Notes: generated by a model not told the origin, from the sequence alone. Positions 1 to 10,998 are shown, counted from the stretch's first letter. The stretch is 56,751 bases of DNA from a bacterium (GCA_030432155.1 JAUIHQ010000001.1:1-56751), one strand, 5' to 3'. Numbers and translations: made by a program.

Positions 1-666
1 TATAATAGATGAATTGGTGAAGCGGCCGCCGTACCACTTTGTTCTCGTTTCATAGAGATTCCCGAGGGTCGGGTCCTCCAGTTCTATACGGACCGGCATG
101 TCTCGCGGATGCCAGAACTGAAAGGCTACAAGGTCGGGATCTCCGCCATCGATGAGGCGGTCCTGTGTGTCGGGAATACCATCATGGTCAGTGTCATTGC
201 TGTTCACCCATGCAATCACACCTTGTGTCTCCTTCGCCTCCGGTGCAACCGGATCCGGATCCACATTCACACACAGGGCCTGGGGCTCGTATACCTTGAC
301 CCCGGGCCAGCGTAACTTCCCGTTATGATGCAACAGGTACTCGTTCACCTTCATGGACCCTACGCCATCAACAGGCGTTTGCAGGCCGAAGAATCGATAT
401 TTTCGTCCTTCACCAAGCGGCACCGCACCTTCCACACTGACTACATGATGGCCATGGGGCATCAGCCGCACCGGGACAATGGCCCCGATCGAATCGGCGC
501 CTCCCTCAATCTGAAAGTGATGCTCACGAAGATAGTCGGTAAGCGACCGGTCAAAAGCATCGCTCAACCGAGGCGGATCCATCAGATCATTCAGCGTGTA
601 GGTTCGGGCCACAGCAACGAGAGGTACTATCGCCAGGAAGATCGCACTCGCTCGCACCAACCTCAT
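1..666 (-). CDS. exported hypothetical protein, N-terminal part only (runs off window start)
   Basis: Absent from the ORF track because there is no stop in the window. My minus-strand translation from the ATG at 666-664 stays open for 222 codons: MRLVRASAIFLAIVPLVAVARTYTLNDL... (signal-peptide-like). An Asp loop NSNDTDHDGIPDTQD follows later. The ATG overlaps the stop of the upstream ORF (ATGA, 663-666). Confidence 0.5.
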   Translation of the reverse strand, partial: MRLVRASAIFLAIVPLVAVARTYTLNDLMDPPRLSDAFDRSLTDYLREHHFQIEGGADSIGAIVPVRLMPHGHHVVSVEGAVPLGEGRKYRFFGLQTPVDGVGSMKVNEYLLHHNGKLRWPGVKVYEPQALCVNVDPDPVAPEAKETQGVIAWVNSNDTDHDGIPDTQDRLIDGGDPDLVAFQFWHPRDMPVRIELEDPTLGNLYETRTKWYGGRFTNSSII

Positions 667-1181
667 CGCGGGGATCTCCACGATACATGGTTTTCGGGCC
701 ATGCTTCATCCCGATTTACGGAGCGAGCGGGTATACTCAGGATATCCATGGGATCGGAGCCGGCAGCAATCTCGTCCGCATTGCTGTAGCCATCGTCATC
801 CAGATCCAGCTCGCTATCCGTCCGGCCTGACTCGGGATAGGTGGCCGATTGCAGGGGATCAAGCAAGAGCAGACGCTCCCACCCATCATCCAATCCATCC
901 CCGTCCGAATCGACCAGAAGGGGGTCTGTTCCCTCGCGCCGTTCCTGGTCGCTGGATATCCCGTCACCATCCTCATCCTGAACCGCGGACTCGTGTATGT
1001 GCCGGTTCAACTCAACGACAATGCTCCGGGCCCGGACAGGGTCTGCCGGAAGCATGATGTACCGGCGGACACCATCGCCGAAAACTTCCGTCCGAAGATG
1101 TTGGCTGTCCTGTGCAGTCGCTGCGCCTCCGGGGACTGCCATCGACAAGAAAATCACAACCAGGCAAACCGCATCAAACAT
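663..1181 (-). CDS. small exported protein with TSP3-like calcium-binding Asp loops
   Basis: Track ORF 663..1238. I prefer the internal ATG at 1181-1179, which gives MFDAVCLVVIFLSMAVPGGAATAQ (hydrophobic signal/anchor). Loops: QDEDGDGISSDQE, DSDGDGLDDGWE, DLDDDGYSNADE. This start overlaps the RT stop (1174-1176) by 8 nt (ATGTTTGA). Confidence 0.55.
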   Translation of the reverse strand: MFDAVCLVVIFLSMAVPGGAATAQDSQHLRTEVFGDGVRRYIMLPADPVRARSIVVELNRHIHESAVQDEDGDGISSDQERREGTDPLLVDSDGDGLDDGWERLLLLDPLQSATYPESGRTDSELDLDDDGYSNADEIAAGSDPMDILSIPARSVNRDEAWPENHVSWRSPR

Positions 1182-2364
1182 AGCCGCCCCCCGGTTCCTG
1201 GCGTGGGCTGGAATCGATCCGGGCGATCCGGCATGCACATGCCGGATTGATCATATGTAGAAAGCTGAGTTTACCCTCGAGAACCCGGACCGGGTCGGCC
1301 GCAGTGTTTCGGCTTACATGATCTTCCACCGCATCGTCACCCATTGTTCGCCGGCGATGCTCCATCGCGCGCAGCCGACGCCTTTCACTGCGCGGAATGT
1401 TCATGGTTTCATTTACCACGATTCCGGTTACGGTCTGGCGACGCGACTTCCGCATCACCCGCACCTTCTTCTCGTTTACCCGAAATCCCTCGTCCACGAT
1501 GATCTCTTTGATCCATGGTATCAGCTCGGGCAAACGGGGATTGTTGGAAGAAAGAATGAGATCATCTGCATACCTGGTGTACCGGAACTTCATGCGCCTC
1601 GCGAGACCGGCCAATCGTCGGTCAAGGTTACCGGCAACAAAGTTCGAGACCGCAGGGCTGGTCACACCGCCCTGGGGCAATGAATCATCAAGCGTACAGA
1701 TGTTGGCCAGGGCAATGGCGACCCGATAGGGATAACCGAACGATTCAAAGACCTTGCGCACCTGGCGATGCGTTATGGATGGAAAGAAATCCTCAAGATC
1801 GATTCGCAGGACGACTTGTCTTCCAATATGCGGCCGCGCGTTATCGGCGATCGACATCCCCTTTCGGTATGCCCGTGCGCTACGATGCGGCTTCCGATGA
1901 TCGAGGATCGAACGGACCACCCACGATTGTATGCGCTTCAATCGGCCGCAGGGAGCGTGAATGGTTCGCGAGCGGCCGTCCGACTTGGGAACCTCAAAGG
2001 ACCGATACAACTGTCGCCGGTTAAACAGCATGCCGTTCATGTCAGCGACGGACATGTGCAAGCGGCGGGCCAGGTGTTCGTTGTTGAAGATCACCGGAAT
2101 CCGGCGGGCCCCGATCGTCCTGCTGTAACGCCCGAAGAAGTCAAGCAGGCGAAGGTCGATATCCGGATTCCGCTCCACAATCCATTTCAGATGCTTGTCA
2201 TCTCGTAATGACGGAGAAGGATCCTCATCATGCATGACCGGCTCGCGACCGGCATCGAGACAGGCCCGGGCATAGGCGCACACCAGGTCCTTGATCTCCG
2301 GATCCGCGCCGGCCTGACGCTGCAACTGATTCAGTGCTTCTATGGTTTTGTACTTCTCTTGCAT
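1174..2364 (-). CDS. retron-type reverse transcriptase
   Basis: 396-aa ORF, colinear by eye with retron Ec86 RT. Motifs: YRSFEVPKSDGRSRTIHAP, ADNARPHIG (NAxxH), LRIDLEDFFPSI, LPQGGVTSP, RYADDLILS (YADD), RQTVTGIVVN (retron VTG) and a LEGKLSFL tail. No maturase or endonuclease domain. There is an extra ~85 aa at the N-terminus. Confidence 0.85.
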   Translation of the reverse strand: MQEKYKTIEALNQLQRQAGADPEIKDLVCAYARACLDAGREPVMHDEDPSPSLRDDKHLKWIVERNPDIDLRLLDFFGRYSRTIGARRIPVIFNNEHLARRLHMSVADMNGMLFNRRQLYRSFEVPKSDGRSRTIHAPCGRLKRIQSWVVRSILDHRKPHRSARAYRKGMSIADNARPHIGRQVVLRIDLEDFFPSITHRQVRKVFESFGYPYRVAIALANICTLDDSLPQGGVTSPAVSNFVAGNLDRRLAGLARRMKFRYTRYADDLILSSNNPRLPELIPWIKEIIVDEGFRVNEKKVRVMRKSRRQTVTGIVVNETMNIPRSERRRLRAMEHRRRTMGDDAVEDHVSRNTAADPVRVLEGKLSFLHMINPACACRIARIDSSPRQEPGGGYV

Positions 2365-2375
2365 GACCGAAAGGG

Positions 2376-2545
2376 TGACGCGGCATCGGCGGCTTACCTT
2401 CTCGCCGGATAACGGCTCGCACGAGGCGGGAGTCCGGGCAAGAGGGCTTGCCCGGACGACCTTAGTGCATCAGCAGTGAACGTTGTGTGCGGCGAATCAC
2501 CGCACCCCGCAATACGCGGAACTAAATCCTGCCGATGCCGCGTCA
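2376..2545 (-). ncRNA. candidate retron msr-msd non-coding RNA
   Basis: On the minus strand, a perfect 15-nt inverted repeat: TGACGCGGCATCGGC (2545-2531, a1) pairs with GCCGATCCGCGTCA-type complement GCCGATGCCGCGTCA (2390-2376, a2). The arms enclose 140 nt. Internal hairpins lie at 2519-2507 (4 bp), 2505-2487 (6 bp) and 2457-2432 (11-bp perfect stem, 4-nt loop). a1 is followed by AGG, a candidate branching G. a2 ends 11 nt before the RT ATG. Confidence 0.55.
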
Positions 2546-2547
2546 AA

Positions 2548-2886
2548 TCATTCAAATGTTATGTTTTTCATTGCCACCAATGGTTTCGGGGATTGAACAA
2601 CAAAGTCCGGGGATGGAAAGGGAACGGCGCCAACGCGGGATCCATCGACGGCAAATGATTCCGTCTTCCCACGCCACGCGATATCCAGTCGGGAAAATGT
2701 ATGACCGCAGTTGGGACAATACCCCCGGCAGGGATCATTCAATGCTCGCAAAGCACTGATGGCGCGACAATGGCGGCACTGCAGATACCCTGACGCCTTA
2801 CCGACCATAAGGCCGGTCGCGGCAACGGCGACCCCGGCGAGGCCAAGTCCGGCGAGAAAGGATCGTCTGGTCATACTGCTGCTCAT
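2548..2886 (-). CDS. small Tat-signal protein with 4-Cys zinc-ribbon-like motif
   Basis: Track ORF 2548..2943. The start at 2886 gives MSSSMTRRSFLAGLGLAGVAVAATG (twin-arginine motif RRSFL). It overlaps the stop of the 1090-aa ORF as ATGA (2883-2886). Cysteines: CRHC...CPNC. Confidence 0.55.
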   Translation of the reverse strand: MSSSMTRRSFLAGLGLAGVAVAATGLMVGKASGYLQCRHCRAISALRALNDPCRGYCPNCGHTFSRLDIAWRGKTESFAVDGSRVGAVPFPSPDFVVQSPKPLVAMKNITFE

Positions 2887-5800
2887 GGAACCACCCTCGT
2901 TGCGTTTCGATAGGCAGCGGAACCATCGCCCAGCTCTTTCCACTCCTCCGGATCGGTGTAGGCCCGGTAATCGTCAAATTGACGTGGATCGGTACCATTC
3001 AGATACTCCTCAATGTCCAGCAGGCCGTCCCGGTCCGTATCGTCATAGGGATATCCGAAGTCGCGGCTTCCGAAGTGAATCCATTCCCAGGCATCATCCA
3101 GACCATCCTGATCGGCATCGGGATGAATGTTGAAGTGGATGTCTTCCAGATTATCATCCACCACGATCCGAATCGGCATTCCGGTTTGAAGTGAGAAATA
3201 CCCTTCAGTAAGCGACTCGCTGTATACCCCGGCATCGAATTCCCCGACGACGTTTACCGGGATGCCGGTACATTGGTAGAGGCCGGAGGCTTCTTCACGA
3301 GCGATCCGAACCGAATCCGGTCGCCGATAGCCGATATGCATAAGGTGCTGAACATCGGATTCGGATGACTCGGAGTAATACACCCGCACGTCGTCCACCT
3401 TGCCATTCCAGCCATGCAGGTATGGATCTGCACCATCGCCGAGTATCGGGTTCAGCATGAAGCCCGGAGTCCTTTCAACGCTCCCGGCGTGAACAAGCTG
3501 CCCATTCAGGAAACAAGACAGATTGGTGCTGTTCCAGGTTACCACGATATGATGCCATGTCTCTGCATCAAGACGCCGGCCCGGCTCCGCATCACTGAAC
3601 CCTCCCGGCACCATGATGCCTCCCCCTGCATTCATGCGGATGAAAAATGATTCTGGGTCCGTTCGATCAGCCTGAAACAGTTCTCGAACCCGGGACGGCT
3701 TGTCGAACGGATAGACTCGACAGGAGATGGTTCCCCTGGAGCCGAGGTCCATGGGCGGCAGGGCGATTCGACCCAACCCTTTCGTATAGCAGGCCCCGTA
3801 GCCGTCCGACCCATTCTTCGCGGCCCAGACATCAACAAACTGTGCATCGATCCTGGTCAGGCCGTAGTTGCGGGGGGTCACACCACCATGGCCACCCACA
3901 TCAAGAGGAAGATGCACCGCGAGCTCCTCTTCCCATATGACGCGGGCCGCCGGAACATACTCGAGAGGTTTTGATGATGTGATGCGGCCGGATACCGTAC
4001 AGGGATCCTGCAGAAGCCGGCCGGTTCCCGGAATCGGAAGGACATCTACACGGGACAATCGCTCATTGAATGTGATCCGATAGCGGCCGGCAGGCCAGGC
4101 GTCGGCCGGTGCAGCCCCGTCGTCTGCGCCGGATGTCATTCCGGCACCAAGGCTCAGCACCTCATCGTTGCCTTCCACTCGAAACCCATCGCCGGCAAGA
4201 CCCGCGGACGGCAAGGCGGCTGCGTTCTCCGACTCGGGAACCTCGACATCAATCTGCCAGAGATAGGCTGCGGTAAGAACCATGTTGGTCTGAGCAACCG
4301 ACATACCCAGGCCGGTCAACTGCATTTCCTGGTAGCTGGATACGGGGGCATTCCATTGGTGGGGGGGCAGACCCATGGTCAGTTCTTCTTCATCGGTAAG
4401 GCCGTCATGGTCCGAATCCGGAGAGTGACTGTCAGGTATGCGAGGATCCGTTCCATCCCTCCACTCCGCATCATTGGTCCTTCCATCTCCATCGGGATCT
4501 CCATCGGCGCCATTGCTTTCGTCCCAGGATCCGTCGTCAAAGGGATCCAGCCCATGGGCCCGTTCCCAGGCATCCGGCAAACCGTCGCCATCAGCATCGG
4601 GAAGAGAAGCGCCGGCCGGCACCACCGGGATCCGCCAACGCACACCGCGATTATCGTCTGCATGGCCCCGCGCATCGGTAATCGCCACCTGCAGCTCTTC
4701 GGCACTCGGCACAACCACAACCGCTTCCTGTCGGTTACGCTCGGACGCATGAACGGCATCAACCGCCAATACCGTGATGCCGGCCTCCACGATAAAGCTC
4801 ACCGGCGGTTCCATCTCCGTACCGGGAGGCAGAGCATAGGACAGCTTGAGGAGACCTCCGGCGACCGGGCGCGGCGGTTGCCAGATCAACGGAATGGCGG
4901 CGACATCATTCGAGGCGGAGGGATCCGTGCCCAGCGCCCATTCCATGCCATGATCAAAGGTGATGCCCATCAACCCGTCTCCATCGGGGTTGTCTCGACC
5001 CCCATATACCGTCGACCCGAACCAGTAGGTCTCCCAGTCATCGGGAAGTCCATCGTTGTCGGCATCCGTAGCATCACCAAGAACATCGGCAATATGATAG
5101 GCATCTTCCGGCGATGCATGAACGAGGCCGGCGCCATCGGTGATCAGCATCCGGTAATAGAGGCGGGAGGATGGCGGGAGGGTACCGAGCTGGAGATGCC
5201 AGAGGTCGTTGTTGTTCGCCTCGGCATGGTTTACGACCGGTTCGCGGAACCATTCACCGCCTTCAACAGAGTATTCCACGCTGCCGCTGAAGCCTCGGCC
5301 GGCGGGCCAGGTTTCAGTGTTGAGCCACAACGAATCCTGCGAGCTGAGCATACCGTTGTATGGCCAGTGGTGGGTATTGCCGATCCAGTACAAGGGCAGA
5401 CCCGCGCGGACACCGGCGGTAAAGGGGGTCACCTGACTCCCCACACTCACCTGGTTGGTGTGGTGATCTATGAAGCTGAGCCAGTAGTCGATGACATGTC
5501 CGCCGGGGAACGACCCGAGGTTTACATGCCACCAGTCGTTGTTGCCTCGGATACCGGCACGCGACAGCTCCCGGATCCCGACAACATCATTGATCTGTGT
5601 CTTGTAGAAGAGCAGCGCATGGGAGGCCGCATCCCGGGGCCAGGTTTCGGCATCGATCCACAGATCCTCGCCGGCATCGAGCTCGCCGTCCGGCGGCCAC
5701 TGAGTGACATGGCCGGCCCACCGGATGACCGGGGGCTGGTCGGGGGCTACGGTGAAGGAATAGTCCGCCCCGCCATTGCTGTCCCACATATCACCGGTCT

Positions 5801-6155
5801 CGGTATGACGGAGATGGAAGAAGTACCGGACTTCACCGGCCGGAAACGGTTCGGCAGGGGTATAGCGCCAGATCGAGTCGATGCTGTTGGAACCGGCGTA
5901 CGTCATACGGTGCATGGACCAGTTCCCCGCCCCGGCCCGGATGCCGACCTCCACGAAAAGGTCCGAGGATCGATCGTTGACGAGGACTGTGAACACCCCC
6001 GGATTCCCCCCTTCGTGACGCAGAAACGACCCATACGCGCCCATCCATGAGGGCGCCGCCATGGATGAGGCGGGCATCAGGGAAACCATGATAACGATTG
6101 CCGTAACAATCGCCGCATGAATCACTTGGAATGTCTTGCTTGAGAGCTTTGCCAT
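2883..6155 (-). CDS. large secreted non-catalytic protein: CBM-like repeats + TSP3 loops + LamG domain
   Basis: 1090 aa with a signal-like N-terminus (...IVIMVSLMPASSMAAP). It has N-terminal ~100-aa repeats containing WPPDGELDAGEDLWIDAETWPRDAA and WDSNGGADYSF-type motifs. Asp loops: DADNDGLPDDWE, DADGDGLPDAWE, DPDGDGRTNDAEW, DADQDGLDDAWE, DTDRDGLLDIEEY. A LamG-like block reads WHHIVVTWNSTNLSCFLNGQLV...GKVDDVRVY. I recognise no hydrolase motif. Confidence 0.8.
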   Translation of the reverse strand: MAKLSSKTFQVIHAAIVTAIVIMVSLMPASSMAAPSWMGAYGSFLRHEGGNPGVFTVLVNDRSSDLFVEVGIRAGAGNWSMHRMTYAGSNSIDSIWRYTPAEPFPAGEVRYFFHLRHTETGDMWDSNGGADYSFTVAPDQPPVIRWAGHVTQWPPDGELDAGEDLWIDAETWPRDAASHALLFYKTQINDVVGIRELSRAGIRGNNDWWHVNLGSFPGGHVIDYWLSFIDHHTNQVSVGSQVTPFTAGVRAGLPLYWIGNTHHWPYNGMLSSQDSLWLNTETWPAGRGFSGSVEYSVEGGEWFREPVVNHAEANNNDLWHLQLGTLPPSSRLYYRMLITDGAGLVHASPEDAYHIADVLGDATDADNDGLPDDWETYWFGSTVYGGRDNPDGDGLMGITFDHGMEWALGTDPSASNDVAAIPLIWQPPRPVAGGLLKLSYALPPGTEMEPPVSFIVEAGITVLAVDAVHASERNRQEAVVVVPSAEELQVAITDARGHADDNRGVRWRIPVVPAGASLPDADGDGLPDAWERAHGLDPFDDGSWDESNGADGDPDGDGRTNDAEWRDGTDPRIPDSHSPDSDHDGLTDEEELTMGLPPHQWNAPVSSYQEMQLTGLGMSVAQTNMVLTAAYLWQIDVEVPESENAAALPSAGLAGDGFRVEGNDEVLSLGAGMTSGADDGAAPADAWPAGRYRITFNERLSRVDVLPIPGTGRLLQDPCTVSGRITSSKPLEYVPAARVIWEEELAVHLPLDVGGHGGVTPRNYGLTRIDAQFVDVWAAKNGSDGYGACYTKGLGRIALPPMDLGSRGTISCRVYPFDKPSRVRELFQADRTDPESFFIRMNAGGGIMVPGGFSDAEPGRRLDAETWHHIVVTWNSTNLSCFLNGQLVHAGSVERTPGFMLNPILGDGADPYLHGWNGKVDDVRVYYSESSESDVQHLMHIGYRRPDSVRIAREEASGLYQCTGIPVNVVGEFDAGVYSESLTEGYFSLQTGMPIRIVVDDNLEDIHFNIHPDADQDGLDDAWEWIHFGSRDFGYPYDDTDRDGLLDIEEYLNGTDPRQFDDYRAYTDPEEWKELGDGSAAYRNATRVVP

Positions 6156-6165
6156 GTCGGCGGCT

Positions 6166-6194
6166 GTTAAAACGTTTTACATGCGTGGTGTCAA
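6166..6194 (-). promoter_or_regulatory. candidate sigma70-type promoter of the 6155->1 operon
   Basis: Minus strand: TTGACA (6194-6189), 17-nt spacer, TTTAAC (6171-6166). Only 10 nt separate the -10 from the ATG at 6155, so the leader would be very short. Confidence 0.3.
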
Positions 6195-6313
6195 TGCATT
6201 TTCTTGAAGAAAGTTTCAACGTGTTGCCGGGGAATAGGTTATGAGTGGTAAAATGTTTTACTTATCCGCGGAGGGGGTTGGATTTCATCATCTTATCTGG
6301 CCTGTTCCTGCAT

Positions 6314-6353
6314 CCCGGCTCGCGAGCCGCTCGCCCTCCCGGGGGAGAGTTGG
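6314..6353 (+). repeat. GC-rich intergenic repeat, copy 1 (contains palindrome CGGCTCGCGAGCCG)
   Basis: cccggctcgcgagccgctcgccctcccgggggagagttgg. It matches 7163-7202 with one mismatch. An inverted, 1-nt-indel copy lies at 32334-32367. Confidence 0.8.
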
Positions 6354-6435
6354 GCTATGTGCAGGATGGGAGGGAGTTCTGGTTGTACAAGAACCTGCCC
6401 ACGAATCAGCACGAATACTGATGTTGATTGCCCTA

Positions 6436-6464
6436 TTGAAATATGGGTGTTATACCCATATGAT
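6436..6464 (+). promoter_or_regulatory. candidate vapBC promoter with embedded palindromic operator
   Basis: TTGAAA (6436-6441), 17-nt spacer, TATGAT (6459-6464). The spacer holds the inverted repeat ATATGGGT-N5-ACCCATAT (6441-6461). The vapB ATG at 6472 is 7 nt after the -10. Confidence 0.4.
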
Positions 6465-6471
6465 ATGCCGT

Positions 6472-6699
6472 ATGAAGACGACCATTGAAATCGATGAGAA
6501 GCTGCTCATGAGCGTAATGAAGCTGACCGGCGCTAAAACCAGGCGCGCGGCTGTCGATTATGCCCTGCATGAGGCAGAGAAAGCGGCCAAAGTCGCTCAC
6601 CTTGTCCGTGAAGCCCCTCCGGAACGTGCATTCAGGGATGCGATTGACGATTCGTATGACATCCTTTCGCTGAGAGAGCAGGAGAAACCGAAACCGTGA
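6472..6699 (+). CDS. vapB: type II antitoxin, VapB-like
   Basis: MKTTIEIDEKLLMSVMKLTGAKTRRAAVDYALHE... is a typical short VapB/DUF2191-like antitoxin N-terminus. Its stop overlaps the GTG start of the PIN gene (GTGA, 6696-6699). The upstream part of track ORF 6241.. runs through the intergenic repeat. Confidence 0.75.
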   Translation: MKTTIEIDEKLLMSVMKLTGAKTRRAAVDYALHEAEKAAKVAHLVREAPPERAFRDAIDDSYDILSLREQEKPKP

Positions 6700-7070
6700 T
6701 TCTGATCGATTCCTGCATGTATATCGACTGGATGAAACAGGGAATCAATCCGGTCGAGCGCCTTGCTCCGCGCCATGCTGAACTGATCTCATGCGGCATC
6801 ATCCATCTCGAAGTCATTCGGGGCATTACAAAAACCGTGGTGAAAGAGTATTTGATCAAATACTTCGACATTCTTCCTCAGGTTCCCCTGTCCAACGGTA
6901 TCCTTCAGTCGGCAACGGAACTCGCATGGGAATCGGACCGTAAAGGGATCGTTCTTCCCTCGACGGACCTGATCATCGCGGCGTGTGTGCTGAAGGCAGG
7001 CGCAACCATGATCACCCGCGACCAGCACTTCTCAAGAATCCCCGGCATCCGGGTCTCAGACGATCTGTAG
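6696..7070 (+). CDS. vapC: PIN-domain toxin VapC
   Basis: 124 aa. PIN acidic residues sit in their usual contexts: ILIDS, HLEVIRG, TDLIIAA, TRDQHF. Confidence 0.85.
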   Translation: MILIDSCMYIDWMKQGINPVERLAPRHAELISCGIIHLEVIRGITKTVVKEYLIKYFDILPQVPLSNGILQSATELAWESDRKGIVLPSTDLIIAACVLKAGATMITRDQHFSRIPGIRVSDDL

Positions 7071-8445: not shown

Positions 8446-10998
8446 ATGAGCCGACTGCCGATCTATGACATCGAGGACGCCCTCCTCGATGCCCTGAAGA
8501 CCCATACCCGGCTGATCATCCAGGCCCCCACCGGCTCGGGCAAATCCACCCAGGTACCTCAGATGCTGTTGACCAACGGAGTCCTCGGCGACGGGGAGGC
8601 GGTGGTGCTTCAGCCCCGGCGCATCGCGGCCCGGATGCTGGGCTCGCGGGTCGCGGAGGAGCTGGGCACCGGCCTCGGGGAAATCGTGGGCTACCAGGTG
8701 CGGTTCGAGAAAGCGGTCAGCCCCCGCACCCGCATCCGTTACGTGACCGAGGGCATCCTGCTCCGGCGGATGATCGACGACCCGCTGCTGCGCGGGGTGA
8801 AGGCCCTGGTGTTTGACGAGTTTCATGAGCGGCACCTGTACGGCGATATCTCGCTGGCCCAGGCGGTCCAGCTCCAGCGGACCCGGCGCCCCGACCTCGT
8901 GATCATCGTGATGTCGGCGACCCTCGACACCGCGGCGCTGGAGCCGTACCTGGATCCCTGCCATGTCCTCACCTCGGAGGGCCGCACCTTTCCGGTGGAT
9001 ATCTCCTACCGGGACACGCGGAGCCGCCCGTCCGATCCCCCGGTGTGGGAGCTGGCCGCGGACACCCTCGGGCGGGCGATCCGGCAAGGGGCGGAAGGCG
9101 ATGCGCTGGTGTTCATGCCCGGCGCGTTCGAGATCCACAAAACCATCCAGGCGATCGAGCGGCTGGATGAGGCGCGGGGGGCGGTGGTGCTTCCGCTGCA
9201 CGGCGAGCTGAACCCGCGGGACCAGGATGCGGCGGTCTCCCGGTATGACCGGCGAAAGATCATCGTCGCCACCAACGTGGCCGAAACCTCCATCACCATC
9301 GACGGCGTCCGGATCGTGATCGACAGCGGCCTCGCCCGGATTCCGGACTACGACCCGAACCGCGGCATCAACACCCTGTTGATCGAGAAGATCAGCCGGG
9401 CCTCGTCCGACCAGCGGGCGGGCCGGGCCGGACGGACGGCGCCGGGGCATTGTTACCGACTGTGGTCGGAGCCGGAGCACCGGGAGCGGCCCCTGCAGGA
9501 AACGCCGGAGGTGCGGCGGCTCGATCTGGCCGAGACCGCGCTGATGCTCAAGGCCGCGGGCTTTGCCGACCTCTCCCTGTTCCCGTGGCTGGAGGCCCCG
9601 GACGCAACCACGCTCGAGCGGGCGGAGACCCTGCTGCGCGACCTCGGGGCGGCGGATCACAACGGGGTCATCACCGAGACCGGACGCCGCATGCTCGCCT
9701 TTCCCGCTCATCCCCGCTATGCGCGGATGCTGCTGGCGGCCGAGACGTATGGGTGTGTCTACCAGGCTTGCCTGATCGCGGCGCTGACCCAAGGCCGGGA
9801 TCTGCTGGTGCGGCGGACCGGCAAGGACTCACGGGACAGGCGGGACGATGTGCTGGGCGATGCTGCGTGGTCCGATTTCCTGATCCTGATGCGGGCCTGG
9901 AGCTTCGCCTCGCGCAATCAATTCCGCCTCGATGCCTGCAAGCGGATGGGCATTCACGCCCAAGCGGCCCGGCAGGCCGACGCGGTGTTCCGGCAGTTTC
10001 TGACCATCGCGGAGCGGGAAAACCTGACCGTGACCGAACGGGCAGCCGATGATGACGCGGTACGCAAGTGCATCCTCGCCGGTTTCTCCGATCACGTGGC
10101 CCGGCGGATCGACAAGGGAACGCTGCGGTGCGAGGTGGTGCACAACCGGCGCGGGGATCTCTCGCGGGACAGCGTGGTGCAGGATGCGGACCTGATCGTG
10201 GCCGCGGAGATTCATGAAATCGAAGGCCGCAGCGTGAACACCGTGCTTTCCCTCGCCACCGCGATTGAGGCGGAATGGCTGGCTGACCTGTATCCGGAGG
10301 ATATGAACACCGCGGTGCACGTCGAATACGATCCGTCGTCGAAACGGGTGCAGGCCGAAGAGCAGCTCCGGTTCCGGGACCTCGTGCTGACCCGGAAGCG
10401 GCTCGACACCCCGCCGGCCGACGAGGCGGCGATGATTCTTGCCCGGGAGGTGGAGGCGGGACGGCTGACCCTCAAGCAGTGGAACCACGGGGTGGACCAG
10501 TTCATCGCCCGGCTCAACTTTCTCAGCCGGACCTGTCCCGAGCTGGAGCTGTCGCCGATCGACGGCGACGACCGCCTTCATCTCATCGCCCAGGTATGTC
10601 ACGGGGCCGCCGGGTACAAGGATATCAAGGACCGGCCGGTGCAGCCGGTCATCGATGCCTGGCTCTCCTCCGCCCAGCGCCATACCCTCGACACCCATGC
10701 CCCCGAGCGGCTGGCCCTGCCCGGCGGGCGGAAGGCCAAACTGACCTATCCGCCGGACGGCGACCCGTACATTTCCCAGCGCATCCAGGAGCTGTACGGG
10801 CTGACCGAGACGCCCCGCATCGCAATGAAGCGGTGCCCGGTCTTGATTCACGTGCTCGCCCCCAACATGCGTGAAGTTCAAATCACCGCGGACTTGAAGC
10901 GGTTCTGGCAGGAGCACTATCCTCGCATCAAACAGGAACTCCAACGCAGGTATCCCAAACACGAGTGGAAAGACCTGAACGGAACGGCGCCAACATGA
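8446..10998 (+). CDS. hrpB: ATP-dependent RNA helicase HrpB
   Basis: 850 aa. QAPTGSGKST (Walker A), DEFHERH (DEAH-type box), SATLD, and a long HrpB-type C-terminal region. Confidence 0.9.
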   Translation: MSRLPIYDIEDALLDALKTHTRLIIQAPTGSGKSTQVPQMLLTNGVLGDGEAVVLQPRRIAARMLGSRVAEELGTGLGEIVGYQVRFEKAVSPRTRIRYVTEGILLRRMIDDPLLRGVKALVFDEFHERHLYGDISLAQAVQLQRTRRPDLVIIVMSATLDTAALEPYLDPCHVLTSEGRTFPVDISYRDTRSRPSDPPVWELAADTLGRAIRQGAEGDALVFMPGAFEIHKTIQAIERLDEARGAVVLPLHGELNPRDQDAAVSRYDRRKIIVATNVAETSITIDGVRIVIDSGLARIPDYDPNRGINTLLIEKISRASSDQRAGRAGRTAPGHCYRLWSEPEHRERPLQETPEVRRLDLAETALMLKAAGFADLSLFPWLEAPDATTLERAETLLRDLGAADHNGVITETGRRMLAFPAHPRYARMLLAAETYGCVYQACLIAALTQGRDLLVRRTGKDSRDRRDDVLGDAAWSDFLILMRAWSFASRNQFRLDACKRMGIHAQAARQADAVFRQFLTIAERENLTVTERAADDDAVRKCILAGFSDHVARRIDKGTLRCEVVHNRRGDLSRDSVVQDADLIVAAEIHEIEGRSVNTVLSLATAIEAEWLADLYPEDMNTAVHVEYDPSSKRVQAEEQLRFRDLVLTRKRLDTPPADEAAMILAREVEAGRLTLKQWNHGVDQFIARLNFLSRTCPELELSPIDGDDRLHLIAQVCHGAAGYKDIKDRPVQPVIDAWLSSAQRHTLDTHAPERLALPGGRKAKLTYPPDGDPYISQRIQELYGLTETPRIAMKRCPVLIHVLAPNMREVQITADLKRFWQEHYPRIKQELQRRYPKHEWKDLNGTAPT

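Follow-up and report, generated by a model that had tools for sequence, protein, structure and literature searches.

A retron in a conserved operon with partner proteins that carry predicted export signals

Introduction

The described systems nearest to the locus reported here are the type XIII retrons (Mestre et al. 2020, reverse transcriptase (RT) clade 10), in which an msr-msd RNA with a1/a2 repeats adjoins the RT gene and accessory genes lie on both sides, an arrangement that recurs in our locus. Type IV retrons (Retron-Eco6/Ec48) are alike in another respect: their two-transmembrane effector bears a targeting signal at its N-terminus and works at the envelope (PMC7736814, Table 1). Among the retron partners that Mestre et al. 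2020 (PMC7736814) classify, none is a phosphorylase, a TPR protein, a twin-arginine translocation (Tat) protein, or a secreted protein. We analyzed a bacterial contig of 56,751 nucleotides (nt) (GCA_030432155.1 JAUIHQ010000001.1:1-56751; its full length is called the window), one end of which encodes a retron-type RT followed by two open reading frames (ORFs), ORF2 and ORF3. An earlier reading of the DNA, referred to below as the original prediction, had proposed that ORF2 and ORF3 encode exported Asp-loop proteins translationally coupled to the RT, as a candidate noncanonical effector module.

To our knowledge, all characterized retron effectors are cytoplasmic, or are small membrane proteins restrained by the complex of the RT with its multicopy single-stranded DNA (msDNA). 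We find that the RT of the window belongs to a distinct retron family in which every recurrent partner, as judged from its N-terminus, carries an export signal. The linkage of ORF2 and ORF3 to the RT recurs in a subclade of this family, and a small four-cysteine protein with a Tat signal, encoded just upstream, follows the RT more faithfully than either.

Results

An RT family near type XIII and its noncoding RNA

The best PADLOC match of the window RT is the RT_XIII profile (315.8 bits), with RT_III-A next at 295; among NCBIfam models, the Ec67/TIR retron RT models score about 240 bits and retron_St85_RT scores 233.5 against a cut-off of 235. These profiles, taken together with YADD and VTG motifs in the sequence, place the enzyme in the retron clade. 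It also carries a family-specific N-terminal extension of ∼85 amino acids (aa). A protein search delineated a distinct family of ∼30 RTs (P0002-P0030) that share 37-55% identity over their full length, this extension included; one of them is named Kiritimatiellia by its source. We read the neighborhoods of the family RTs and added further loci from genome and metagenome scans. Exact-sequence look-ups with the window RT and ORF2 returned no match.

Directly upstream of the RT lies a 170-nt noncoding RNA (ncRNA) closed by a perfect 15-nt inverted repeat, with arm a1 at 2545..2531 (TGACGCGGCATCGGC), arm a2 at 2390..2376 (GCCGATGCCGCGTCA), and 140 nt between the arms. Its minimum free energy is -95.6 kcal/mol (z = -6.2). 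The nine-locus consensus contains the a1/a2 stem, two msr hairpins, and a closing GUUAAC/GGUAAAC helix, and compensatory changes occur in 22 of its 34 pairs. Of 19 family loci, 15 have equivalent a1/a2 pairs, and the a1 arm runs over the stop codon of the small gene at 9 to 10 of them; in the window, a1 begins two bases past the end of that gene (2548). Rfam holds no family that matches the window or the ncRNA. The RT is adjoined by a structured msr-msd closed by a1/a2 repeats, and the element in the window is a real retron.

A small Tat-signal protein accompanies the RT

The original prediction described a two-ORF module; its link to the RT holds, while two further genes were overlooked, that of the small protein and that of a 1090-aa protein before it, the former being better conserved than the ORFs themselves. 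The small protein of the window has a Tat signal (TRRSFLAGLG...), a knuckle pair CxxC...CPxCG, and a C-terminal PFP(N)...K. Twin-arginine signals are of the form S/T-R-R-x-F-L-K with a mildly hydrophobic region; the window protein matches the curated model TIGR01409 (TAT_signal_seq) with 20.9 bits, where the cut-off is 16.7. Homologs of 112-145 aa share an invariant (S/T)RRxF(L/I)K, four invariant Cys residues, and a W-x-x-A-Q-V-P-F-P-N...K C-terminus; across the 20 loci of alignments A1 and A6, the RR, F, four Cys, PF, and K are invariant. With a hidden Markov model of the small protein, 25 locus entries of the family (∼20 distinct loci) gave a match a short way upstream of the RT, whereas the ∼140 loci whose retron RTs are more distant gave none; within the family, the protein is absent from L001-L003 only. 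By these matches, the gene, which lies 5' of the ncRNA, behaves as a coevolving effector or accessory gene of a retron would, and its product is the most conserved RT partner, not ORF2 or ORF3. Searches of PDB sequences with profiles A5 and A6 gave generic zinc-finger noise only. A single-sequence structure model of the small protein was poor (predicted local distance difference test (pLDDT) 46) and was not used.

ORF2- and ORF3-like genes recur beside related RTs

Homologs of ORF3 are rare: an exhaustive phmmer search found only 18 clusters among 1.84 billion representatives. Because of this rarity, the linkage of ORF2 and ORF3 to the RT cannot be chance. The two best-matching ORF3 homologs with readable flanks, P0121 (locus L175) and P0123 (locus L176), are both RT-linked. 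Their loci encode, in order, a LamG/TSP3 protein, the Tat small protein, the RT, an ORF2-like protein with a signal peptide and TSP3 repeats, an ORF3-like protein, and then a ∼325-aa protein; the RTs are ∼51% identical to that of the window, and the order is the window order. Genes at the ORF2 position encode homologs of it in L175, L176, and L177, with 46% identity over 99 aa for the first, and the upstream genes in L175, L176, and L098 are homologous to the 1090-aa gene. In L098 (RT 46% identical), a TSP3 protein, the small protein, and the RT are followed by an ORF3-like gene that overlaps the RT stop.

A second arrangement is found in L004, L007, L008, and L010, where a giant protein of 1700-2800 aa is encoded upstream of the small gene. 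It is composed of beta-helix repeats, TSP3 repeats, and then an ORF3-like domain, and a ∼330-aa gene comes next. P0123 (883 aa) aligns from end to end with the last ∼830 aa of the giants in L004 and L007, and L176_326 (326 aa, encoded after P0123) is homologous to L004_330 and L007_332 (E 1e-42 to 1e-47). The tail of the 1090-aa protein (ELGDGSA...P) is found at the corresponding junction within the giants. Because the giants align to the split genes, the TSP3 and ORF3-like parts form one module that occurs in two states: joined in a single protein upstream of the retron, or divided so that the retron lies between its parts. The linkage spans RT identities of 46-55% and locus GC contents of 0.49-0.60, while the other flanking genes differ. 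By gene order, then, ORF2 and ORF3 are linked to the RT within a subclade. The original prediction raised the question of whether the two ORFs always follow homologs of this RT: they do in L175 and L176, as does an ORF3-like gene in L098, and they do not in L001, L096, L012, or the basal branches described below. Contigs L177-L179 stop ∼210 nt upstream of the gene for the ORF3-like protein P0126, within the ORF2-like gene, and permit no judgment about an RT. These are three independent assemblies, all broken at the same point, and repeats or heterogeneity may defeat assembly there and at the ORF3 end of the window.

Signal peptides and domains of ORF2, ORF3, and the 1090-aa protein

Signal peptides were judged by eye, apart from the one curated Tat model (TIGR01409). 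ORF2 begins with MFDAVCLVVIFLSMAVPGGAATA ahead of QD and ORF3 with MRLVRASAIFLAIVPLVAVA ahead of RT, each with n, h, and c regions typical of the general secretory (Sec) route, and the pattern recurs in the homologs of each ORF; the signal-like segments noted in the original prediction are thus borne out. Its assignment of TSP3-like loops to both proteins survives for ORF2 and fails for ORF3. ORF2 has two TSP3_bac repeats (PF18884; 49.1 bits, cut-off 25), and the exported-type 1090-aa protein combines TSP3_bac (28.7 bits, same cut-off) with LamG. Pfam makes no TSP3 call on the ORF3 motif NSNDTDHDGIPDTQD; in alignment A3 the acidic motif is the invariant loop of a separate conserved domain, in which N155, D158, D160, D166, and D169 are invariant. 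The tail of the 1090-aa protein, ...ELGDGSAAYRNATRVVP, is common to the L098 upstream protein and internal in the giant fused homologs. More generally, a recurrent tail, [AG]DGS-x-x-[WY]...P-stop, closes TSP3 proteins right before the overlapping start of the next gene (window 2883-2935; L098 1-553; L175 2163-2561; L176 2338-2796; L177 2-214), and in the giant fusions P0132 and P0136 this motif lies inside the protein.

Most ORF3-like proteins are 500-880 aa long, with the shared domain straight after the signal peptide. Word-indexed searches with ORF3 and with a profile of its domain returned nothing, probably because poly-Asp words swamped the search. The AlphaFold2 model of homolog P0121, built on a 14-sequence alignment, is confident solely for aa 45-282, an all-beta region with pLDDT mostly 75-91 (10-residue block means). 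Foldseek comparison of the ORF3-like domain with the PDB gave weak tandem beta-sandwich/Ig-like matches (TM about 0.1), and therefore no enzyme can be assigned to it; the structure prediction proposed for the ORFs has thus given a fold class for part of an ORF3 homolog and no enzyme fold.

The C-termini of the ORF3-like proteins are polymorphic. An HS[LM]G nucleophile elbow of the DUF900-like alpha/beta hydrolase kind occurs in 8 of 18, with only a weak Pfam match to DUF900, and HExxH in 3 of 18; the rest are unrecognized. Between L175 and L176, the RTs are 80% and the ORF3-like N-termini 61% identical, and the C-termini and next genes are unrelated. This pattern resembles that of polymorphic toxin/immunity loci; no toxin or immunity family was recognized among the ORF3-like C-termini and next genes.

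Operon layout and gene junctions

All operon features were read directly from the sequence and lie on the minus strand (Table 1), and the genes are packed gap-free. The RT stop codon is the TGA at 1176..1174 and the ORF2 ATG lies at 1181..1179, which gives an overlap of 8 nt (ATGTTTGA). The ORF2 stop (TGA 665..663) and the ORF3 start (ATG 666..664) form an ATGA overlap. Both junctions are as the original prediction had them. A further ATGA at 2886..2883 joins the stop of the 1090-aa gene to the ATG of the small protein, so that the coupling reaches upstream too. We take the 1090-aa gene as the first of the operon because its upstream neighbors are divergent, on the plus strand; they include a VapB antitoxin/PIN-domain toxin pair at 6241..7070 (+). 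At its other end, ORF3 leaves the window at base 1, the end of the contig.

Table 1. Features of the retron operon in the window
Feature	Coordinates	Strand	Basis and remarks
1090-aa protein gene	6155..2883	-	First gene of the operon; Pfam Laminin_G_3 (LamG) and TSP3_bac
Small Tat-signal four-cysteine protein, 112 aa	2886..2548	-	TIGR01409 match, alignments A1 and A6
Retron ncRNA (msr-msd), 170 nt	2545..2376	-	a1/a2 inverted repeat, fold, covariation
Retron-type RT, 396 aa	2364..1174	-	Pfam RVT_1, PADLOC RT_XIII, NCBIfam, family alignment A2
ORF2, 172 aa	1181..663	-	Sec-type signal peptide, two TSP3_bac repeats, homologs in same position
ORF3, at least 222 aa	666..1	-	Sec-type signal peptide, rare all-beta domain; ORF interrupted by the contig end

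For ORF2, an alternative GTG start at 1238 likewise overlaps the RT. In its homologs the start lies ∼11 nt past the RT stop and the M-x-hydrophobic-AQ(T/D) pattern is repeated, which backs the start at 1181; the possibility that the ORF begins elsewhere and is uncoupled, raised with the original prediction, loses its footing. Automatic ORF calling placed the start of the small protein at GTG 2943, with a 61-nt overlap with the 1090-aa gene; we favor the 112-aa product because of its homologs and the ATGA overlap at 2886. On the minus strand, a terminator scan with an E. coli-type model, a weak test, found none between the operon genes and a sole terminator-like site inside the 1090-aa gene. 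A promoter scan of the same strand, also E. coli-type and weak as evidence, found no promoter-like site, and the ncRNA has no recognizable promoter of its own. In the four metagenome runs that hold the window sequence, the read depth of 2-6 is too shallow to inform on msDNA or on extension of the contig.

Other partner sets in the family

In the basal branches, which comprise the Desulfobacterota-like loci L015-L017 and L100-L104 together with L014 and L099, the RT is followed in every case by a PNP_UDP_1 protein. This protein passes the methylthioadenosine/S-adenosylhomocysteine (MTA/SAH) nucleosidase (MtnN) model with 171.6 against 169. Next come a TPR protein of ∼570 aa and then a ∼555-aa protein starting WEC.VTL in L015-L017 and L100-L104, an 830-aa TPR protein with a signal peptide in L014, and a 167-aa protein in L099. 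The PNP, TPR, and ∼555-aa partners all begin with clear Sec signal peptides by eye. An exported MtnN-like enzyme is an oddity in itself as a retron partner.

Two further loci have other neighbors. L095 (RT 50% identical) encodes at 319-1158 a 279-aa protein that has membrane segments as well as a zinc ribbon at its N-terminus and, at 2891-3199, a downstream membrane protein that overlaps the RT stop; the two may be a third partner set. In L007, a 345-aa protein encoded after the RT (9307-10344) has faint LRV (HEAT-like) repeats and no PADLOC match, and the retron is adjoined by a DUF6364/PIN_3 pair.

Gene content of the rest of the window

Positions 8446-52690 of the window encode an HrpB-type helicase and many large carbohydrate-active proteins, among them GH42-like, GH9 with LamG, and GH31 proteins, alpha-amylases, a Big_7 protein, and a TPR/PMT-like protein; none of the proteins in this interval has TSP3 repeats. 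The gene content of the window fits a polysaccharide-degrading, Kiritimatiellia-like host.

Discussion

We suggest that this family is built on a core of the small Tat/Cys4 protein, an msr-msd whose a1 usually lies over the stop of the small gene, and a type XIII-near RT with an N-terminal extension, and that interchangeable partner sets, each of whose members carries a predicted export signal, surround this core. The set of the Kiritimatiellia-like branch, to which the window belongs, consists of TSP3-repeat proteins and an ORF3-like protein, followed by a variable exported protein, with ORF3-like homologs bearing swappable C-termini of the DUF900-type alpha/beta hydrolase or HExxH kind; the basal set consists of the MTA/SAH-nucleosidase-like protein, the TPR protein, and the ∼555-aa protein. 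By analogy with other retrons, the RT-msDNA complex may be the cytoplasmic sensing part. Its output would be delivered to the cell envelope, and would have to act there because all of the partners are predicted to be exported. Tat substrates fold before export. Because the small Tat protein would do so and is the invariant partner, it is a natural candidate for coupling the two compartments and, speculatively, the likely link between cytoplasm and periplasm. ORF3 would then be an exported enzymatic effector arm, and ORF2 and the 1090-aa TSP3 protein putative calcium-binding scaffolds.

We put at about even odds (roughly 0.5) the reading in which ORF2 and ORF3 truly belong to a conserved operon, one organized around a retron family not classified before, and would act through such an exported effector arm. 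It builds on what was observed: how the operon is laid out, the ncRNA, the export signals, and a linkage that is both recurrent and rare. A more far-reaching version, which we regard as quite unlikely, is a retron family acting across the membrane: the Cys4 protein would bind RT-msDNA in the cytoplasm and, on a trigger, either be set free and exported, so as to activate enzymes of the periplasm or surface (ORF3-type hydrolases or an exported MtnN-like nucleosidase), or take the RT-msDNA complex out with it by Tat 'hitchhiking'. If true, either route would be the first case of a retron with an effector arm, or even msDNA, working outside the cytoplasm.

Several points weigh against the exported effector arm. 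A cytoplasmic RT-msDNA complex cannot restrain an exported effector in the way that known retron toxins are held, and the Tat signaling step is speculative. Effector function, msDNA, export, and toxicity are putative throughout. The C-terminal domain of the window ORF3 lies past the contig end. The four flanking proteins of the window and the partners in its relatives have zero matches to PADLOC defense models. The closest RT homolog (55% identity; L001-L003) has neither the small protein nor exported neighbors. L096 and L012 keep the small protein and the RT and lack TSP3/ORF3-like genes, so the RT does not strictly need them. Deeper members of the family have the PNP/TPR set in place of ORF2 and ORF3, which limits the support for the original prediction. 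The two arrangement types fall within one clade; common descent therefore adds to the count of linked loci, and the independent observations are few.

Some of these points favor a linkage without functional dependence, an unlikely reading but the main rival. In that case, a self-contained cassette of small protein, ncRNA, and RT, possibly with the Tat protein as its sole partner, would have landed once within or next to a polymorphic exported toxin/adhesin operon in an ancestral Kiritimatiellia-like bacterium and been kept by descent while fission and fusion later rearranged the operon. Each giant amounts to the upstream TSP3 protein joined to the ORF3-like one, and in the split loci the cassette sits exactly at that junction; the RT persists without TSP3/ORF3-like genes in L001, L096, and L012; only two arrangement types occur, in one clade, and basal relatives use a different partner set; and mobile or defense-like neighbors are present (the VapB/PIN pair in the window, the PIN_3 pair in L007). 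Yet the linkage survives RT identities of 46-55% and a GC range of 0.49 to 0.60 while all other flanks change, start and stop codons overlap across the junctions, and the split genes have gained their own signal peptides. The simple, recent insertion offered as the alternative to the original prediction is disfavored, since the split genes have signal peptides of their own and the linkage occurs in two arrangements. We rank functional linkage above incidental linkage mainly because the other partner set is also entirely exported, which chance insertion next to a surface-protein operon would not lead one to expect.

The dependence might also run the other way, with the retron serving the exported-protein operon, for example by regulating its expression or by supplying single-stranded DNA for recombination or for use outside the cytoplasm, and not as an antiphage sensor. 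The ncRNA is embedded in a polycistronic unit and has no recognizable promoter, conservation in the family looks largely vertical, and Mestre et al. 2020 (PMC7736814) note a correlation between type XIII-like RTs and host 16S, with possible domestication of these RTs. We consider this very unlikely: the promoter scan, being of E. coli type, is weak evidence, no template/variable repeat pair and no similarity of the msd to neighboring genes was found, and partner sets change from branch to branch, which is how retron effectors behave. That ORF2 and ORF3 are artifacts of ORF calling, being no genes or starting elsewhere, is hardly credible. The window does have high GC and many spurious long ORFs on both strands, and GTG 1238 is an alternative start for ORF2, but both ORFs have homologs in the same position, ORF2 matches Pfam TSP3_bac, and either ORF2 start overlaps the RT.

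The observation that all conserved partners have a Tat or Sec signal raises the question of how a cytoplasmic RT-msDNA sensor reaches the envelope. The family also defines three uncharacterized protein families (the Tat/Cys4 small protein, the ORF3-like beta-sandwich domain, and the ∼330-aa exported partner) and ties retrons to polymorphic exported enzymes in poorly studied phyla, represented here by Kiritimatiellia-like and Desulfobacterota-like branches.

Comparison with known systems

With polymorphic secreted toxins and their immunity genes, the ORF3-like family may share a conserved N-terminal module with swappable C-termini, a variable next gene (L175 vs L176), TSP3 repeats, and giant beta-helix forms; it differs in that no known secretion-system marker, toxin family, or immunity family was identified here. 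We know of no described linkage of such toxin systems to a retron. With diversity-generating retroelements (DGRs) the locus shares an RT embedded among genes for exported or surface proteins, whereas the RT here is retron-type and the adjacent RNA has the a1/a2 architecture. We rejected a DGR: positions 1-7000 of the window contain no template/variable repeat and no direct repeat exceeding the TSP3-coding units.

The type IV effector is a small integral membrane protein, whereas the partners here are a Tat Cys4 protein and large, soluble-type, Sec-exported proteins with TSP3, beta-sandwich, hydrolase-like, MtnN-like, and TPR parts, and no sequence relationship between the two was found. Full-text literature searches found no description of retrons with Tat or secreted partners, and a 2026 survey preprint likewise has no phosphorylase, TPR, Tat, or secreted retron partner. 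A retron family with exported partners thus appears to be undescribed, as the original prediction had supposed for an exported calcium-loop protein beside a retron RT.

RT_XIII is the best PADLOC profile for the window RT and its relatives (316-351 bits), as in type XIII, at just 20-40 bits over RT_III-A. The defining type XIII partners, the cluster 114 winged-helix/SWIM zinc-finger protein and the cluster 216 HEAT/ARM accessory protein, are absent here, and the partners here are of exported type. We rejected membership in type XIII: the four flanking proteins have no PADLOC, SWIM, DprA-WH, or HEAT matches, and the partners in relatives have no PADLOC match. A faint likeness is seen in the LRV-repeat protein after the L007 RT, which recalls the HEAT/ARM accessory. 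With an RT closest to those of type XIII and none of the partners that define that type, the locus is filed here as a retron with a new, exported partner class, which would be an addition to the retron classification.

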